From contig JAWODY010000081.1 in NCBI GenBank assembly GCA_046483045.1, forward strand, positions 98,666-162,665: DNA of 64,000 nucleotides, given 5' to 3'. Of the stretch, positions 32,422 through 57,025 are shown one piece after another (within the stretch, counting starts at the first letter, position 1; every line of letters begins with the position of its first letter). The DNA comes from Anaerolineales bacterium. GTDB lineage: Bacteria; Chloroflexota; Anaerolineae; Anaerolineales; UBA11858. A program made the translations under genes and the position numbers. The notes beneath the pieces were generated by a model that was not told the DNA's origin, made no database searches, and saw only the letters and a list, made by a program, of their open reading frames with translations.

Positions 32422-32594
32422 TTAACTTGACATTGTTAGATTAAAACATATGTTCTAATTTTAGGCGAAGGAAGAGTATTCCCGGCCCCTTTGATCCTAA
32501 AATTCATTCATTAGAGGCAGAGGTTTTGCCCATTTTATTCATTTTTTATTCATAATAATCGAACATCTGTGCTAATTTAACATTGTCAAGTTAA
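32422..32594. repeat. 173-bp TIR-bounded element, copy A (inverted relative to copy B)
   Basis: Begins TTAACTTGACATTGTTAGATTAAAACATATGTTC and ends GAACATCTGTGCTAATTTAACATTGTCAAGTTAA. Its reverse complement aligns with 52600-52773 at about 83% identity (hand alignment). Confidence 0.85.
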
Positions 32595-32609: not shown

Positions 32610-33374
32610 ATGCAAATCCTGGCCATCATTTCCGGTGAATACGGCAGGCGTCATGTAGGAAACATTACCACTCACGGGCCTCAAGAGTGGCATATAGAAA
32701 CCTGGCGGACGCCAAGGTCTTTCCCGCCCATCATTGATTATCCGGAGGATCACCTGCCGGACACCCTCCCGGAAGCGGATCTGCTGCTCTCTTTTGCTGA
32801 AGACAAAGGCGCAGCGGAACTGCTCCCCGAGATCGCCAAGATGACAGGGGCGAAAGCCGTGATCGTTGCTGTCGACGATGAGGGCTGGCTGCCGCGGGGG
32901 TTAGACCGGCAGCTCCGGGGCTGGCTGGAGGAACAAGGTGTGACCTGCGTGACCCCTAAACCATTATGCTCTTTGACCGAGAGCGAATACGGGGTAACCC
33001 AACAGAAAACCAGATCCTATCAAGACCCCTACATTGAAGCCTTCGCCCGGCACTTTGGGCGTCCTGAACTGGAACTCGAGATCGATCCGGAAACGAAGAT
33101 CATCGCCAGCGCTCAGGTCGTCCAGGACGTTGTATGCGGCTGTGCCCGCCACGTCGCGCAGGGCTTAATTGGCATATCCGTGAACGACGCGGAGGAGAAG
33201 GCAGGACTGCTGCATCACCATTATCCCTGCCTGGCGAGCATGAAGAAACTCCCCCATTTCAACCACGACACCCTGATGCACACGTCAGGTCAAATCCTGA
33301 AAAACAATGTTGCCATGCAGGTGAAACCTTACAAACACGTGCGGTACATCGAACCCGGAAAACGATCAGAGTGA
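32610..33374 (+). CDS. DUF166 (COG1810-like) family protein
   Basis: 254 aa. ILAIISGEYGRRH...IIDYPEDHLPDTLPEADLLLSF...LPEIAKMTGAKAVIVAV...CSL matches my recollection of the mostly archaeal DUF166 family layout. Function is unknown or uncertain. Confidence 0.65.
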   Translation: MQILAIISGEYGRRHVGNITTHGPQEWHIETWRTPRSFPPIIDYPEDHLPDTLPEADLLLSFAEDKGAAELLPEIAKMTGAKAVIVAVDDEGWLPRGLDRQLRGWLEEQGVTCVTPKPLCSLTESEYGVTQQKTRSYQDPYIEAFARHFGRPELELEIDPETKIIASAQVVQDVVCGCARHVAQGLIGISVNDAEEKAGLLHHHYPCLASMKKLPHFNHDTLMHTSGQILKNNVAMQVKPYKHVRYIEPGKRSE

Positions 33375-43732: not shown

Positions 43733-45055
43733 TTATTGACCTTCTTCGATCTGGGTCCGGATCTGTTCGGCAGCGTTCTGGAAGGCTTCCTCTCCGGTCA
43801 CTTCGCCGCTGATGATCAGTTCTTCAGCGTCACCCCAGGCGGTCCATACAGATGCCATTTCGGGGATGGCAGGCATGGGTAAACCCTCCGCGCCTGCTTC
43901 GGCGAAGGAAGCCAGATCTTCGTCCTCGGTCGCCTCTCGGACCGGCAGCCAGGCTGACGGACGTGGATCGGCGTCATACAGGCCCTGCATGAACTCATCA
44001 CTGGCCACGACTTCGCTGAGAAGCGTTTGCGCCAGAAGCTGGTTCTCGCTGAAAGCGCTGACCATGAAGCCCTGCACGCCCAGGAAGGGGCGACCGTTGG
44101 TGTCATCGCCGGCAGGGAATTTGCCGATGTTGTAAGACACGCCGCTTTCGCGGATGCGGCCCAAAGCCCACGGTCCGGTGCCGATGCAGGCCACCTGGCC
44201 CTGTTCAAACAACGTGTGCATCACATCGTAATCCACACCCGCTTCAACATAGCCCTCAGCGGCCATCATCTCCAACCATTCCGCCGCGGCGATGGCGCCT
44301 TCGCTGTCCAGTCCCACATCCTGCGGATCATATCCACCCTCAGATCGCCCAAAGATATAGCCGCCGTAGGCGGTGACCAGCGGGAACATGTGATAGGGGT
44401 CATTGGTCTGAATGGTCCAGGCTGTGGCTTCACCATCGCTGTTCTCTTCGATGGTTTCCGCCAAGCTCATGACCTCATCCCAGGTCTCAGGTCGTTCGCC
44501 GTCAGCATATTCACTGAGCAGATCAGGGTTGCAGAAATAGGCGATGTTCTCTGTGGCATAAGGCATCCCATACAGCGTGCCCTGATAGGTAAAGGCGTCC
44601 ACGGCGGGCCCAAAGAAGCTGTCCGCTTTCTGGCCCAGGTCAATTTCCGCTACCAGGCCGTTGGCCACCAATTCACCCAGCCAGTCGTGCGCGCCGATGA
44701 AGATATCAGGACCTTCTCCTGCGGGTCCGGCCACTTTCACCTGGTCACGGATATCGCCAAAGCCGAGCTGGACCACTTCCACCTCAATGCCCAATTCTTC
44801 CGCGTATTTCCCGGAGATCTCTTCGATGATCGGGGAACGGGTCTCATCCGCCCAAATCACGAGGGTGGGCGCTTCAGCCTCCTGTGTGGGTTCTTCCGTG
44901 GGTTCTTCTGTGGGTTCTTCTGTGGGTTCTTCCACCACTTCTTCTGTCGGTTCCTCTGTCGGTTCCGGGATTTGTGTGGCGCACGCCCCCAGGACGAGAG
45001 CAAACGTCAGCAGCGCTACAATCATAATCCATAAAGGTTTCTTCTTCATATCCAT
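43733..45055 (-). CDS. malE: maltose/maltodextrin-type ABC substrate-binding lipoprotein
   Basis: 440 aa. Lipobox LVLGAC, an (EEPT)n linker, then a family-1 solute-binding domain (LVIWADETR...GDIRDQVKVAGPAGEGPDIFIGAHDW). Confidence 0.85.
   Translation of the reverse strand: MDMKKKPLWIMIVALLTFALVLGACATQIPEPTEEPTEEVVEEPTEEPTEEPTEEPTQEAEAPTLVIWADETRSPIIEEISGKYAEELGIEVEVVQLGFGDIRDQVKVAGPAGEGPDIFIGAHDWLGELVANGLVAEIDLGQKADSFFGPAVDAFTYQGTLYGMPYATENIAYFCNPDLLSEYADGERPETWDEVMSLAETIEENSDGEATAWTIQTNDPYHMFPLVTAYGGYIFGRSEGGYDPQDVGLDSEGAIAAAEWLEMMAAEGYVEAGVDYDVMHTLFEQGQVACIGTGPWALGRIRESGVSYNIGKFPAGDDTNGRPFLGVQGFMVSAFSENQLLAQTLLSEVVASDEFMQGLYDADPRPSAWLPVREATEDEDLASFAEAGAEGLPMPAIPEMASVWTAWGDAEELIISGEVTGEEAFQNAAEQIRTQIEEGQ
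44886..44933. repeat. 4 x 12-bp tandem repeat inside malE
   Basis: GTGGGTTCTTC(C/T) occurs four times in tandem, encoding the EEPT repeat linker. Two degenerate copies follow. Confidence 0.9.
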
Positions 45056-49670: not shown

Positions 49671-50022
49671 CCATCCTTTACCCTTCTCACGATTGTGATT
49701 TATCCAACCATCAAAACCATTCCCTCAGCCAGCAGGTACTTATTCCTTGGGGATTTTAGTTTTTCACCTGTAACCTGTATGACGTATTATAAACAACTTC
49801 AAGGGGATCCATTGACAAAAAAATAGCCGCAGGTGTTCCCGTCACTCCTCCGCTGTGATACACTTCAACTGCAAAATCTGAAATGGACATCCCGAACAAA
49901 AGCCAGCCTAACCGCCTTCCGTTTTCAGCTGCGTGGTTACCTGATGTTGGTTTCACATCCTCAGCGCGACCTGAAACCTGGATACAACGAAAAAAGACTC
50001 ACAAGGAAAAGGATTCAGATAT

Positions 50023-50538
50023 ATGAAACACATCCATTTGGACACACAAAGACTTCACCTGCGTTCGATGGTTTCCGATGACCTGGATGAACTTTTAAAT
50101 ATCTTTGGAGATCCCCGGGTGATGGCCTCTTTTAACGAACCTCCATTCACCCGCCAGCAAATGCAGGGTTGGCTGGACCGGAATCTGGCCCATCAAGAAC
50201 GCTGGGGATATGGGCTCTTCGCGGTGATCTTGAAAGCAGAGGAGGTTTTGATCGGCGACTGCGGGCTGGAGCACATGGACCTGGAAGGCGAAGAAGTCAC
50301 TGAGCTGGGATATGACATATGCAGCGCGTATTGGAACCAGGGCTACGCCACGGAAGCGGCCCGCGCCGTGCGCGATTTCGCCTTTCAATCCCTAGACCTT
50401 CCAAAACTGGTCAGCCTGATCCGGGTCGGCAACCAGGCCTCAAAACGGGTGGCGGAAAAGACCGGCATGCACTTTGTAGACGTGATCGAAAGATACGACA
50501 TCGCCTATTGGAAATATGCCATCAACAGGAAAGAATAA
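50023..50538 (+). CDS. GNAT family N-acetyltransferase (RimJ/RimL-like)
   Basis: 171 aa. Typical GNAT core (YGLFAVILKAEEVLIGDCGL...WNQGYATEAARAVRDFAF). Confidence 0.85.
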   Translation: MKHIHLDTQRLHLRSMVSDDLDELLNIFGDPRVMASFNEPPFTRQQMQGWLDRNLAHQERWGYGLFAVILKAEEVLIGDCGLEHMDLEGEEVTELGYDICSAYWNQGYATEAARAVRDFAFQSLDLPKLVSLIRVGNQASKRVAEKTGMHFVDVIERYDIAYWKYAINRKE

Positions 50539-50634
50539 AATCAGACCAGCACGCACGCTGGCACAAATCATCGTCCAAAAAATTCTCCTCATCCGCTTCA
50601 GAGGTCATCCCCCCAGAATGTTATAATTTGAACC

Positions 50635-51786
50635 ATGGAAAATAATACAAGAAAACAAAAAGTAGATCCACAGCGACAACAGAAAGCCAAAGAATACGCC
50701 CGCCTCCGGCGCCGCTTCATGCTCCTGGACCTGGTCCTGGGCACCGCCTTGCTCCTGGCCTGGCTGCTCACCGGCTGGTCAGCAGCCCTGAGGGACTGGG
50801 TTTTCTCCTGGACGGACAGCGCCTGGATAGCCGTGGGGGCTTTTGGGGGGATCTTTGGCGGCGTCTTTTACCTGATCGATTTGCCGTTATCCTACTACAC
50901 GGGATATGTGCTTCCACACCATTACGAATTATCCAATCAGGACCTCAAAGGCTGGATCACCGACCAGCTCAAAGGCCTCCTCTTGGGAGCAGCTCTGGGA
51001 GGACTTCTCTTAGAGGTGGTCTATTTCCTGCTCCGCATTGCGCCCCAGACCTGGTGGCTGTGGACCGGGTTGGTTCTGCTTTTCTTCAGCGTCATCCTTG
51101 CCAATGTAGCGCCTATCCTGATCTTTCCCATCTTTTATGATTTCCAACCCCTGGAAGAGGAACATCAGGACCTCAAACAACGCTTGATCAAACTGGCTGA
51201 GAAAGCCGGCACCGAAGTGAAAGGTGTTTTTAAATTTGATATGAGCCGGCGCACCAAACAGGCCAACGCCGCCCTGACCGGTCTGGGAAACACGCGCCGT
51301 ATCATCCTGGGAGATACGCTGTTAGAGGAATTTTCCGACGACGAAATCGAGACCGTGCTGGCCCACGAGCTGGGCCACCATGTCAACAACGACATCCCCC
51401 TGGGGATCGCGGTGCAGACCATCCTCACCTTTAGCGGCCTTTACCTGGCATCCTTCCTCCTGGACTGGGGCATCGGTTATTTCGGTTTCCAGGGTGTATC
51501 GAATATTGCAGCCCTGCCTCTCTTTGGCCTGGTCATGAGCCTTTACGGTCTGGTCACCATGCCTCTCAGCAACGCCTACAGCCGCTGGCGGGAGCGCATG
51601 GCCGACTGCTACGCCCTCCAGGCCACGGAAAACGGAGAGGCCTACGCCTCCGCCCTGGTGCGCCTGGCTGACCAGAACTTGGCTGAGGCGGACCCCGAAG
51701 CCTGGGTGGAGTTCTTGCTCTATTCCCACCCGGCCCTGCAGAAGAGGATCGACATGGCGCACGATTTCTCAACGGGTAAAGCCTAG
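50635..51786 (+). CDS. M48 family (Ste24/HtpX-like) membrane metalloprotease
   Basis: 383 aa. Several TM segments and a HELGHH zinc motif. Confidence 0.85.
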   Translation: MENNTRKQKVDPQRQQKAKEYARLRRRFMLLDLVLGTALLLAWLLTGWSAALRDWVFSWTDSAWIAVGAFGGIFGGVFYLIDLPLSYYTGYVLPHHYELSNQDLKGWITDQLKGLLLGAALGGLLLEVVYFLLRIAPQTWWLWTGLVLLFFSVILANVAPILIFPIFYDFQPLEEEHQDLKQRLIKLAEKAGTEVKGVFKFDMSRRTKQANAALTGLGNTRRIILGDTLLEEFSDDEIETVLAHELGHHVNNDIPLGIAVQTILTFSGLYLASFLLDWGIGYFGFQGVSNIAALPLFGLVMSLYGLVTMPLSNAYSRWRERMADCYALQATENGEAYASALVRLADQNLAEADPEAWVEFLLYSHPALQKRIDMAHDFSTGKA

Positions 51787-51807
51787 GTCCCTTTTTTATA
51801 CCAGGGG

Positions 51808-52603
51808 ATGAACATGAAAATACATCACCTGAACTGTGAGACCCTCCACGCACCCTTTGTCCACATCGACTCCCTGGTCTACTGCCTGCTGGTGGAATCC
51901 GGCAGCCGGTTGGTGCTGGTGGATACCGGCTTCGGCTTGAGGGATTACACCCAACCCACCCCAAAAACGCGTTTTTTCTGCACTACATGGGCGTCCCCCG
52001 AGACTCGGCGGAGACTGCCCTGCACCAGATCAGAGCGTTTGGATACCAGGCAGATGACGTGACCGATATCATCTGCACCCACCTGCATATCGACCACGCC
52101 GGGGGACTGTCCGACTTTCCCCGGGCGAACGTTCACATTTATGAGAAAGAATACTTGGCCGCTCAAAAGCCCCGGGGGATGATGGGATTTGCTTATGTTC
52201 AATCCCAATGGGCGCACGGCCCGCATTGGGTCTCCCATGAGCTGGGGGATGGAACTTGGTTCGGCCTGGACGCCATCCAGGTCCTAGCCACCCCGGAAGC
52301 ATTATTCTATCTGCTACCCCTGCCCGGTCACACCCCGGTCCCTGCGGGGCAGCCATCGGCAGCACAGGAAACTGGCTGCTGCACTGCGGGGATGCAGCCT
52401 CTCCTTTTCACCCCCTGACGGATCTGCATGACCGGGGCCCTGACGCTTACCGTTTATCCTTCTTTCCCAGGAAAATTACGGAAGGGTTGGCCGGCCCCCA
52501 CGCCTCGCGCCTGAAAGCGCTCTTGACCGAGCATGCCAGGGAGATCCGCGGGATCAGCTCACATGATATTTTCAGCTTCAAAGAATATCGCCAGACGCAT
52601 TAA
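51808..52603 (+). pseudogene. MBL-fold metallo-hydrolase split into three frames (two -1 lesions, or assembly errors)
   Basis: Three pieces are visible. Piece 1: MKIHHLNCETL...VLVDTGFG (frame 1). Piece 2: LHYMGVPRDS...THLHIDHAGG...LPLPGHTP (frame 2). Piece 3: G.CGAAIG...NWLLHCGDA...SFKEYRQTH (frame 3). The shifts map to the A5/T6 runs at 51963-51977 and the GG at 52337-52338. Confidence 0.75.
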
Positions 52604-52773
52604 CTTGACAATGTTAAATTAGCACGGATGTTCGACTATATTGAGGCAAAAAGTAAACAACATGGGTAAAAGCTCTGCTTCTAGTCAGGAAATTTTAGGA
52701 TCAAAGAGGCTGGAAAAATTCTTCTTTAGCCTAAACTTAGAACATATGTTTTAATCTAACATTGTCAAGTTAA
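52600..52773. repeat. 174-bp TIR-bounded element, copy B
   Basis: Begins TTAACTTGACAATGTTAAATTAGCACGGATGTTC and ends GAACATATGTTTTAATCTAACATTGTCAAGTTAA. It is the reverse-complement homolog of 32422-32594. It sits between the MBL stop codon and the clpC terminator. Confidence 0.85.
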
Positions 52774-52795
52774 AGGCATTTTTAATTAACAAAAA

Positions 52796-52825
52796 ACAGC
52801 GTGCTGACAAAAATCAGCACGCTGT
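52796..52825 (-). terminator. rho-independent terminator of clpC
   Basis: Perfect 12-bp stem ACAGCGTGCTGA/TCAGCACGCTGT with a 6-nt loop, followed by T6 on the minus strand. Confidence 0.85.
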
Positions 52826-52847
52826 TGTGATTTCCTGATCAGGGACC

Positions 52848-55373
<2,526 letters not shown>

Positions 55374-55639
55374 ACTAGCCAAAATGCAACCTCCTGCAAC
55401 AACTCGGGGGTTCCCCCGAATTTCAGTTGCGATTGTAATAGAGAGAATTCTTGCTTACTGGTAAAAACATTCTACCAAAGAAAGCCCTCAAATATTAGGC
55501 CAGTGCCTTTTTTAATAAAAATATAATAAATATTCCTTCCCGGGTCTTACAATTTTGTATGCAGTACGTGCATCCTTTCACAAAACCCCCAGGACAGAAA
55601 AAAAGCGCACCTGGTTAGGGTGCGCTGTCTGCTACAGGG

Positions 55640-57025
55640 TCATTCCTCATCGTCAGGAGGGGCTTCGCTCCCCTTTTCTGATTCCCCCTCATCAGGAGGC
55701 TGATCTCCCTTGGCCTCCTCTTTTCCATCTCCAGAAAGCGCCTCTTCCCCGACCCCCTTCTCATCATCTTCCATGGGTTCCTCTTCCTCGCTGATTCCCA
55801 TTTCTTCCAGTCCCCCTTCCTCTTCGAACTCCTCCTGAATCTTTTCATAGTCATAAGAGGCAAATTCATCCGAATCAACTTTCTCCAAACTAAGGCCGAT
55901 TCTATGCCGTTCTTTATCAAGATTGATCACCCTTAATGTCAACTCTTCATCCACGCTGACCACTTCGGATGGATGCCCCACACGCTGCGCGCTCAGCTCT
56001 GAGATATGGATCAGCCCTTCCAATTCCGTGCCGCTGATGCGGGCAAAGGCCCCAAAATCCGTCAAATTAGTGATCGTCGCCTGCACAAGCTGACCCTCTT
56101 CCACGTCCTGGATCTTCTCTTTCCAGGGGTCATCCTCTAACCTGCGTAAAGAAAGGCCGATGCGCCGTTTCTCTTCATCCAGGCTGATGACTTCCACCTC
56201 CACTTCCTGGCCCACTTTAACCACATCCCGGGGGTGATCCACATGTTCCCAGGAAAGCTCCGAGAGGTGAACAAGGCCATCCACCCCTTGAATATTCACA
56301 AAGGCGCCAAAATCTGCCAGGCTGCTGACATATCCTGTGACATGGTCCCCCACCGCCAGGTCATCAATAAGCTGTTCTTTGATCGCTTCCCGTGTCTCTC
56401 CAATGGCATCCCGTTCTGAGAGGATCAAACGCTGCCGCTCGCGCTCTACTTCAATCACCGTCAATGTGATGGGTTCGCCAACTGCATTCTCCCAGCGGTC
56501 TTCTGGAGTTGCCCCTTCTTGTTCTCGAAACACGCTGACCAGAGAGCCGGGCACAAATCCCTGTAATTGGCCTACAGGGACGAGCAGCCCGCCTTTGTTA
56601 TATCCCTCTACAATGGTTTCCAAGGTTTCTCCACTCTCCAGCATCTCCTCCACTCGCTGCCAATCCTTTTCTTCTTGGGCGCGCGTGTAGGACAGGACGA
56701 CATTGCCGTTGGGATCTTCGGGCTCGACGATGTAGACGGAGATTACGTCTCCGACTTCAAACGTTTGTAGCGTGTCTTGATCGATTTTATCCAATTCGTA
56801 ACCGGCAATGATCCCATCTGCTTTCGATTTCACATCGATGAGAATTTCATGCTTTGTGATGGATGTGATCTCCCCATTCCGGATTTCTCCTTTTTGGGGG
56901 ATGGAGGCCAGGCCCAGCCCTTCCTGGGCGAGGAGGGTTTCCATATCAAGCGCTTCTTCACGGGCTGTATCATTCGCTGGGACCACGACTTCTTCCCTTT
57001 CTTGTTCTTGGTTTTCTTCCATCAT
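55640..57025 (-). CDS. rpsA: 30S ribosomal protein S1-like protein (four S1 domains) with acidic tail
   Basis: Four S1/OB repeats are present (for example GDHVTGYVSSLADFGAFVNI and GQLVQATITNLTDFGAFARI). About 85 C-terminal residues are rich in Glu/Asp/Gly. The start is set at MMEENQ. Confidence 0.8.
   Translation of the reverse strand: MMEENQEQEREEVVVPANDTAREEALDMETLLAQEGLGLASIPQKGEIRNGEITSITKHEILIDVKSKADGIIAGYELDKIDQDTLQTFEVGDVISVYIVEPEDPNGNVVLSYTRAQEEKDWQRVEEMLESGETLETIVEGYNKGGLLVPVGQLQGFVPGSLVSVFREQEGATPEDRWENAVGEPITLTVIEVERERQRLILSERDAIGETREAIKEQLIDDLAVGDHVTGYVSSLADFGAFVNIQGVDGLVHLSELSWEHVDHPRDVVKVGQEVEVEVISLDEEKRRIGLSLRRLEDDPWKEKIQDVEEGQLVQATITNLTDFGAFARISGTELEGLIHISELSAQRVGHPSEVVSVDEELTLRVINLDKERHRIGLSLEKVDSDEFASYDYEKIQEEFEEEGGLEEMGISEEEEPMEDDEKGVGEEALSGDGKEEAKGDQPPDEGESEKGSEAPPDDEE

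Follow-up and report, generated by a model that had tools for sequence, protein, structure and literature searches.

A short TTAA-flanked element in an Anaerolineales genome, very probably a MITE of IS701-family origin

RUP of Streptococcus pneumoniae is a MITE related to IS630-Spn1, and the Correia elements (CREE) of Neisseria are MITEs of about 100 to 170 nt with long inverted repeats, promoter-like terminal hexamers, and a strong hairpin that forms when they are transcribed. The MaeMITEs of Microcystis aeruginosa are likewise bacterial MITEs (PMC2779907). Among autonomous elements, the IS701 family (De Palmenaer, Siguier and Mahillon 2008, PMC2266710) is marked by target duplications that are exactly 4 bp long and a typical length of 1400 to 1550 bp; the partial end consensus in Table 1 of that paper, ---YACT-Y--YR, covers, as the paper states, one cluster and not the whole family.

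We analyzed a stretch of 64,000 nucleotides (the window) from an Anaerolineales bacterium, in which a 174-base element, B, separates clpC from a gene for an MBL-fold protein. We conclude with high confidence that element B is a MITE, a non-autonomous element that arose by internal deletion from an insertion sequence (IS) of the IS701 family. Like bacterial MITEs in general, it is small, non-coding, and intergenic, carries terminal inverted repeats (TIRs) matching those of an IS, is flanked by a target duplication, and occurs in several copies; unlike RUP and the MaeMITEs, it has an IS701-family parent, a TTAA duplication, and a host in the Anaerolineales (Chloroflexota). The candidate parent shares the DDE transposase (NF033540, DDE_5) and the 4-bp duplication with the IS701 family, whereas element B, unlike members of that family, has no transposase. 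In size, inverted repeats, and terminal hexamers, B resembles the Correia elements, which might serve as a working model only if B had been co-opted by its host; the terminus is unrelated, the duplication is TTAA in B versus TA in the Correia elements, the -10 box is not conserved in the B terminus, and B is not a member of that group. Our literature search, whose coverage was incomplete, found no IS701-derived MITE and no MITE in Anaerolineae. Element B is an unnamed MITE of a well-known class, and as such it is ordinary mobile DNA.

Architecture and insertion sites of the two copies

The window holds two copies of the element, A and B, whose features are as follows.

32422-32594, minus strand: copy A of the same MITE (165-nt core at 32426-32590; TTAA at 32422-32425 and 32591-32594)
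52600-52773: element B in full, with TTAA, 174 bases
52604-52769, plus strand: MITE core of copy B, 166 nt, in the orientation of the parent IS, with the IRL (transposase-proximal) end at the left
52600-52603, no strand: left TTAA of the target-site duplication, containing the TAA stop of the MBL-fold frame
52770-52773, no strand: right TTAA of the target-site duplication, called from the single TTAA at the empty site in the related contig L075
52604-52633, plus strand: left terminal inverted repeat, IRL type, CTTGACAATGTTAAATTAGCACGGATGTTC
52634-52669, plus strand: residue of the parent IS 5' leader (5' of the transposase start)
52670-52736, plus strand: interior filler, holding the local hairpin flagged in the preliminary description
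52737-52769, plus strand: right end, IRR type (TIR arm proper, 52740-52769)
52662-52754, plus strand: chance 30-codon open reading frame (ORF), not a gene

The core of B has a GC content of about 33 to 38%, compared with about 51 to 65% in the flanking DNA. Its TIRs are imperfect and about 30 nt long; with the TTAA included, a repeat search paired 52600-52633 with 52740-52773 (34 nt, 85% complementary). The repeat search and a pairwise alignment agreed with the preliminary description that B is an inverted copy of A. The 22 nt of the shared terminus, TTAACTTGACAWTGTTARATTA, stand at each end of A and of B, giving four occurrences in the window, and were absent from 100 dinucleotide-preserving shuffles. 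Within the 64-kb window, we found no further degenerate copies, no parent IS, and no transposase homolog matching the element. What identifies B as a MITE is a 166-nt core with TIRs and no transposase gene, a duplication that can be read against an empty site, termini shared with an autonomous IS, and dispersed copies, two in the window and four in the Anaerolineales metagenome-assembled genome (MAG) CAZTWV01.

The empty sites come from syntenic loci that were obtained through ClpC homologs and a SpoVS protein; exact-protein look-ups with the M48 peptidase and DUF166 proteins of the window returned no record. The ClpC encoded beside B shares 98% identity with its counterpart in an Anaerolineales MAG (L075, GCA_018335275.1), and the other named close ClpC matches are from Anaerolineales or Chloroflexota. 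The L075 contig is syntenic with the window (S1 protein, clpC, MBL-fold gene, M48 peptidase), and its 74-nt clpC-MBL spacer reads ...GCGCA TTAA AGTCATTTTTAATTAAC..., with one TTAA; at this position, which is the empty B site, 166 nt followed by a second TTAA interrupt the L075-like sequence of the window. The two flanks of B align separately, window 50021-52603 with L075 6142-3559 (93.6% identity) and window 52770-56325 with L075 3562-1 (96.0%), and the alignments overlap in L075 by exactly 4 nt, TTAA.

Copy A sits inside the short spacer between the cupin and DUF166 genes. The sites compared with it come from contigs that encode an identical SpoVS protein; by gene calls, this spacer is 29 to 31 nt long in six of them, and in all four contigs that were aligned (L076 and L079-L081) the site is empty, with a single TTAA. 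Here, too, the flanks overlap by 4 nt, window 32425 corresponding to L080 2547 and window 32591 to L080 2550. The single TTAA in the relatives and the 4-nt overlaps show that both copies are insertions with a 4-bp TTAA duplication, and since both sites are empty in relatives that are 92 to 96% identical in the flanks, A and B were inserted after the divergence from these relatives. The empty sites also ruled out that TTAA is part of the inverted repeat and not a duplication. The proposal that B is an autonomous or mobile unit is thus borne out for mobility, by the empty sites, the TTAA duplication, and the dispersed copies; autonomy has to be abandoned, as the element encodes nothing and the window holds no matching transposase.

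Two details of the B neighborhood noted previously were found again: the stop of the MBL-fold frame lies at 52603, inside the TTAA, and the clpC terminator lies beyond the other end of B, as a minus-strand hairpin at 52826-52795. The MBL-fold gene (51808-52603) is spread over three reading frames, whereas its L075 ortholog is an intact protein of 263 amino acids; two single-base deletions in homopolymer runs, near 51978 (TTTTTTC-) and near 52338 (CCCCGG-), account for the split, which reflects either a real pseudogene or homopolymer sequencing error. In L072 (8539-8935; also in L073 and L074), where ClpC is 94% identical, the clpC-MBL spacer measures 397 nt against 74 nt; the additional ~320 nt lack any match to the terminus of the MITE, show no relationship to B, and represent a different insertion in nearly the same place. 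Copy A ends 15 nt 5' of the DUF166 start codon (32610) and could affect expression of that gene. A further repeat of the window, at 44868-44975, is a 12-nt tandem array of about 7 to 9 units resembling TCTTC(C/T)GTGGGT, probably a stretch coding for a repetitive peptide.

The candidate parent and a model of transposition

The outer 36 to 41 nt at both ends of the element are 97 to 100% identical to the ends of a candidate parent IS of 1,653 nt, here called IS_caz, which is composed of L024:7576-8000 and L030:1-1228, adjacent stretches of a contig from another Anaerolineales MAG. Window 52600-52635, the left end of B, is 100% identical to L030 1228-1193 (36 nt), and the right end, 52737-52773, is 97% identical to IS_caz 1617-1653 (37 nt); for copy A, the values are 97% (38 nt) and 100% (37 nt). 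The similarity extends about 35 nt beyond the left terminus into the 5' leader, IS_caz 1-71 aligning with window 52600-52669 at 83%. For the ~65-nt interior that follows (52670-52736), no detectable match was found in the parent IS; this filler is common only to copy A and the four copies in CAZTWV01. Retention of both IS ends gives B the architecture of an internal-deletion derivative.

IS_caz has an uninterrupted open frame of 513 codons, or about 500 amino acids from the first possible start. L006 carries a second full-length copy of 1,653 nt (118-1770); its transposase frame (222-1730) is broken into 392 and 107 amino acids, whereas that of L024/L030 is intact. Both copies have a hairpin in the 5' leader, GGTAACG...CGTTACC, ending in a putative TTG start codon. 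The L024/L030 protein is 75 to 84% identical to that of L006. At L044 (239-1715), a pair of termini flanks a gene; such pairs lie about 1.5 to 1.65 kb apart. The L044 transposase scored 198 bits on the NCBIfam model NF033540 (IS701 family; cut-off, 150), and the Pfam domain DDE_5 was matched by both L006 (E=1.8e-40) and L044 (E=3e-33). The full-length transposases of L006 and L044 are only 40% identical to each other.

By this transposase model and by the length of the duplication, TTAA being doubled at both MITE sites, the candidate parent is assigned to the IS701 family on sequence grounds, as a member distant from those that have been named: identity to the named plasmid-borne IS701 transposases, including that of ISRso17, is about 28 to 31%. 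Its length without the duplication, 1,645 nt (1,645 to 1,653 overall), is about 100 nt above the typical IS701 range, and its ends, CTTGACAATGTTA, do not fit the partial IS701 end consensus, which describes one cluster only. A further element, L001, is flanked by the non-palindromic pair TTAT...TTAT.

These relationships suggest how the element may have arisen and moved. B keeps some 70 nt from the left of the IS (inverted repeat and 5' leader) and about 37 nt from its right. An IS701-family DDE transposase encoded elsewhere would recognize both TIRs; staggered cuts at a TTAA target, followed by repair, would then duplicate the TTAA. B entered at the TTAA in which the MBL-fold gene has its stop codon, and the duplication preserved that stop. 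While a lineage transposes, the termini alone would be constrained. The small ORF, the promoter-like hexamers, and the whole-element hairpin are very probably by-products of this architecture. Mobilization in trans by a cognate transposase is inferred.

Divergence, internal features, and alternative explanations

Realignment of A and B gave 28 differences, including one 1-nt indel, with 146 of 174 columns identical (83.9%); the preliminary description had counted 29. Its observation that conservation is uneven was reproduced exactly at the ends, with 35 of 36 positions identical at the left and 36 of 37 at the right (71 of 73 for the termini together) against 75 of 101 in the interior (74%), and the contrast between termini and interior is significant by the Fisher exact test (P=1.8e-5, or 7.9e-5 when the TTAA is left out). 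Nearly identical ends around an interior of 74% identity are what results when the termini alone are constrained, by the need for transposase recognition. Selection on the termini, as proposed earlier, therefore stands and probably acts at the level of transposing lineages; the promoter boxes do not stand as its target, the ends being TIRs of IS701-family type. A and B differ by 16% although both insertions are young relative to their host flanks, so most of the divergence predates insertion and arose in separate transposing lineages, and A and B are best explained as two diverged sub-lineages of the MITE, as part of the account that we hold to be very probable.

The four copies in CAZTWV01, a third Anaerolineales genome (L002, L023, L031, and L056), have four sets of flanks that are unrelated, and they share a single 165-nt core sequence, with 92% identity to A and 81 to 82% to B. 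This brings the MITE to three distinct sequence variants, and homology among all six copies ends exactly at the TTAA. These copies bear on the possibility that a full-length IS inserted here and was afterward stripped of its interior by deletion, in which case the short element would never have transposed. The ends of B are indeed those of a full-length IS, and a full-length insertion would also leave a 4-bp duplication, but the same deletion and the same non-IS interior are found at six sites in two genomes, in copies that share no flanks and whose CAZTWV01 cores are identical. Independent identical deletions at six sites are implausible, and we consider such an in-place origin very unlikely.

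A different possibility, which would add to a MITE origin and not replace it, is co-option of the MITE for regulation, with the IRR arm serving as a sigma-70-like promoter that reads through the element and out of it, into DUF166 from A and antisense into the MBL-fold gene from B, and with the long hairpin altering the stability or termination of read-through transcripts, as in the Correia elements of Neisseria. The hexamers are where they had been placed (TTGACA at 52605-52610 with GATGTT at 52627-52632; on the minus strand, TTGACA at 52768-52763 with TATGTT at 52746-52741), and a region of 800 nt holds five promoter-like sites against 0.6 expected from shuffles. A consensus promoter scan called only the minus-strand TTGACA-16-TATGTT (10 of 12 positions), the plus-strand GATGTT being too weak. 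In copy A, the corresponding arm (TTGACA at 32427-32432, 16 nt, TATGTT at 32449-32454) faces the DUF166 start at 32610, having split the native short spacer, and the predicted folds of the whole element are strong (-50 kcal/mol on the plus strand and -47.4 on the minus strand; z about -6). However, this fold follows trivially from the inverted-repeat ends, and since close relatives carry neither insertion, neither locus depends on its copy. Nor are the boxes conserved as promoter elements, as had been supposed: among 83 distinct arms that share the terminus, a -10-like hexamer lies 16 to 18 nt away in 8, compared with 5 to 14 at four control spacings (conservation of positions 1 to 18 in this sample is partly imposed by the search pattern). 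Because the -10 box is not enriched, TTGACA appears to be conserved as a transposase recognition sequence and not as half of a promoter. We regard co-option as improbable, and the statement in the preliminary description that B is not a promoter for a neighboring gene is supported.

The small ORF of B had been likened to a type I toxin-antitoxin locus and, on balance, judged non-coding, and our results favor the latter. In favor of a toxin-antitoxin or small-protein locus, in which the ORF would be translated and the opposite arm would give rise to an antisense RNA, one can cite the position of the ORF between convergent promoter-like sites and a weak, sub-threshold match to the Rfam SIB RNA (20 bits; gathering level, 56). 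The ORF is intact in only one of the three variants, B itself; copy A is interrupted by a TGA at codon 10, which the CAZTWV01 copies share, and in these the ATG start is replaced by ATA. The codon differences between A and B, recounted from the translations, are again 12 non-synonymous and 2 synonymous. The peptide is hydrophilic, its C-terminal LEHMF* is the translated right inverted repeat, and a Pfam search with the 30 residues gave no match. Rfam 15 gave no match in the whole window at gathering level; in permissive mode at the locus, it returned far-sub-threshold matches only (miRNA, snoRNA, SIB, and STnc260; the best, 27.7 bits against 100). With the locus also absent from close relatives, the toxin-antitoxin layout is coincidental, and such a locus is the least credible of the alternatives, to the point that we scarcely entertain it. 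The proposed RNA structure fared little better. The stem ATTTTAGG/CCTAAA is present in A and B, as described, and is weaker in the third variant; in four cells the outer stem is disrupted with no compensating change, and two inner pairs are changed on both sides. For the three distinct variants, the RNAalifold covariation term is -0.09 kcal/mol, and this is too little for a selected structure. As the metagenome scans yielded no more copies of this sub-lineage, a covariance model from three distinct sequences was not worthwhile.

Spread of the terminus and significance

The reading of B as a MITE matters mainly for annotation: it accounts for two intergenic islands rich in AT, one spurious small ORF, and the promoter-like motifs of this genome. 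It also documents a clean, recent insertion polymorphism between closely related Anaerolineales. For a phylum that has been little studied, it adds a MITE family that has no name as yet, together with the candidate parent IS; the ends are precisely defined, and the target is TTAA. This could be of use in repeat masking and strain typing or as a basis for developing genetic tools. The understanding of mechanisms is unchanged by the finding.

In a scan that covered each prokaryotic species with one genome, the 22-mer terminus was matched exactly at 71 loci, and many of the matches form inverted pairs 86 to 241 nt apart, the pattern of short elements; lineage-specific scans of a metagenome collection with the two-arm MITE pattern and an extended IRR pattern gave 0 matches. 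The 22-mer is present in MAGs labeled Saprospiraceae, Anaerolineales, other Chloroflexota, Poribacteria, several cyanobacteria, and Ignavibacteria, and also in MAGs labeled Gemmatimonas, KSB1, Deltaproteobacteria, Methanosarcinales, and Jordarchaeia, a spread that depends on MAG labels and short contigs, for which mis-binning is possible. The terminus is common to at least 18 short elements whose interiors are unrelated. Taken jointly, these observations could be read to mean that an IS701 subgroup, present in at least nine phylum-level groups of bacteria and two lineages of archaea, has kept TTAA targeting and an almost invariant ~18-nt terminus, CTTGACAATGTTARATTA, despite transposases that are only about 40% identical, that it has repeatedly spawned unrelated MITE families, and that the one in Anaerolineales may be a mobile promoter-and-hairpin cassette; we consider this combined reading improbable.

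CAZTWV01 itself contains ten terminus loci (L002, L003, L008, L023, L028, L029, L031, L046, L056, and L067), several of them at contig ends, and, besides the MITE described here, a second family of MITEs, which has a different interior and a core of 175 nt (L003 and L028); together, these suggest a recent burst of transposition in that genome.
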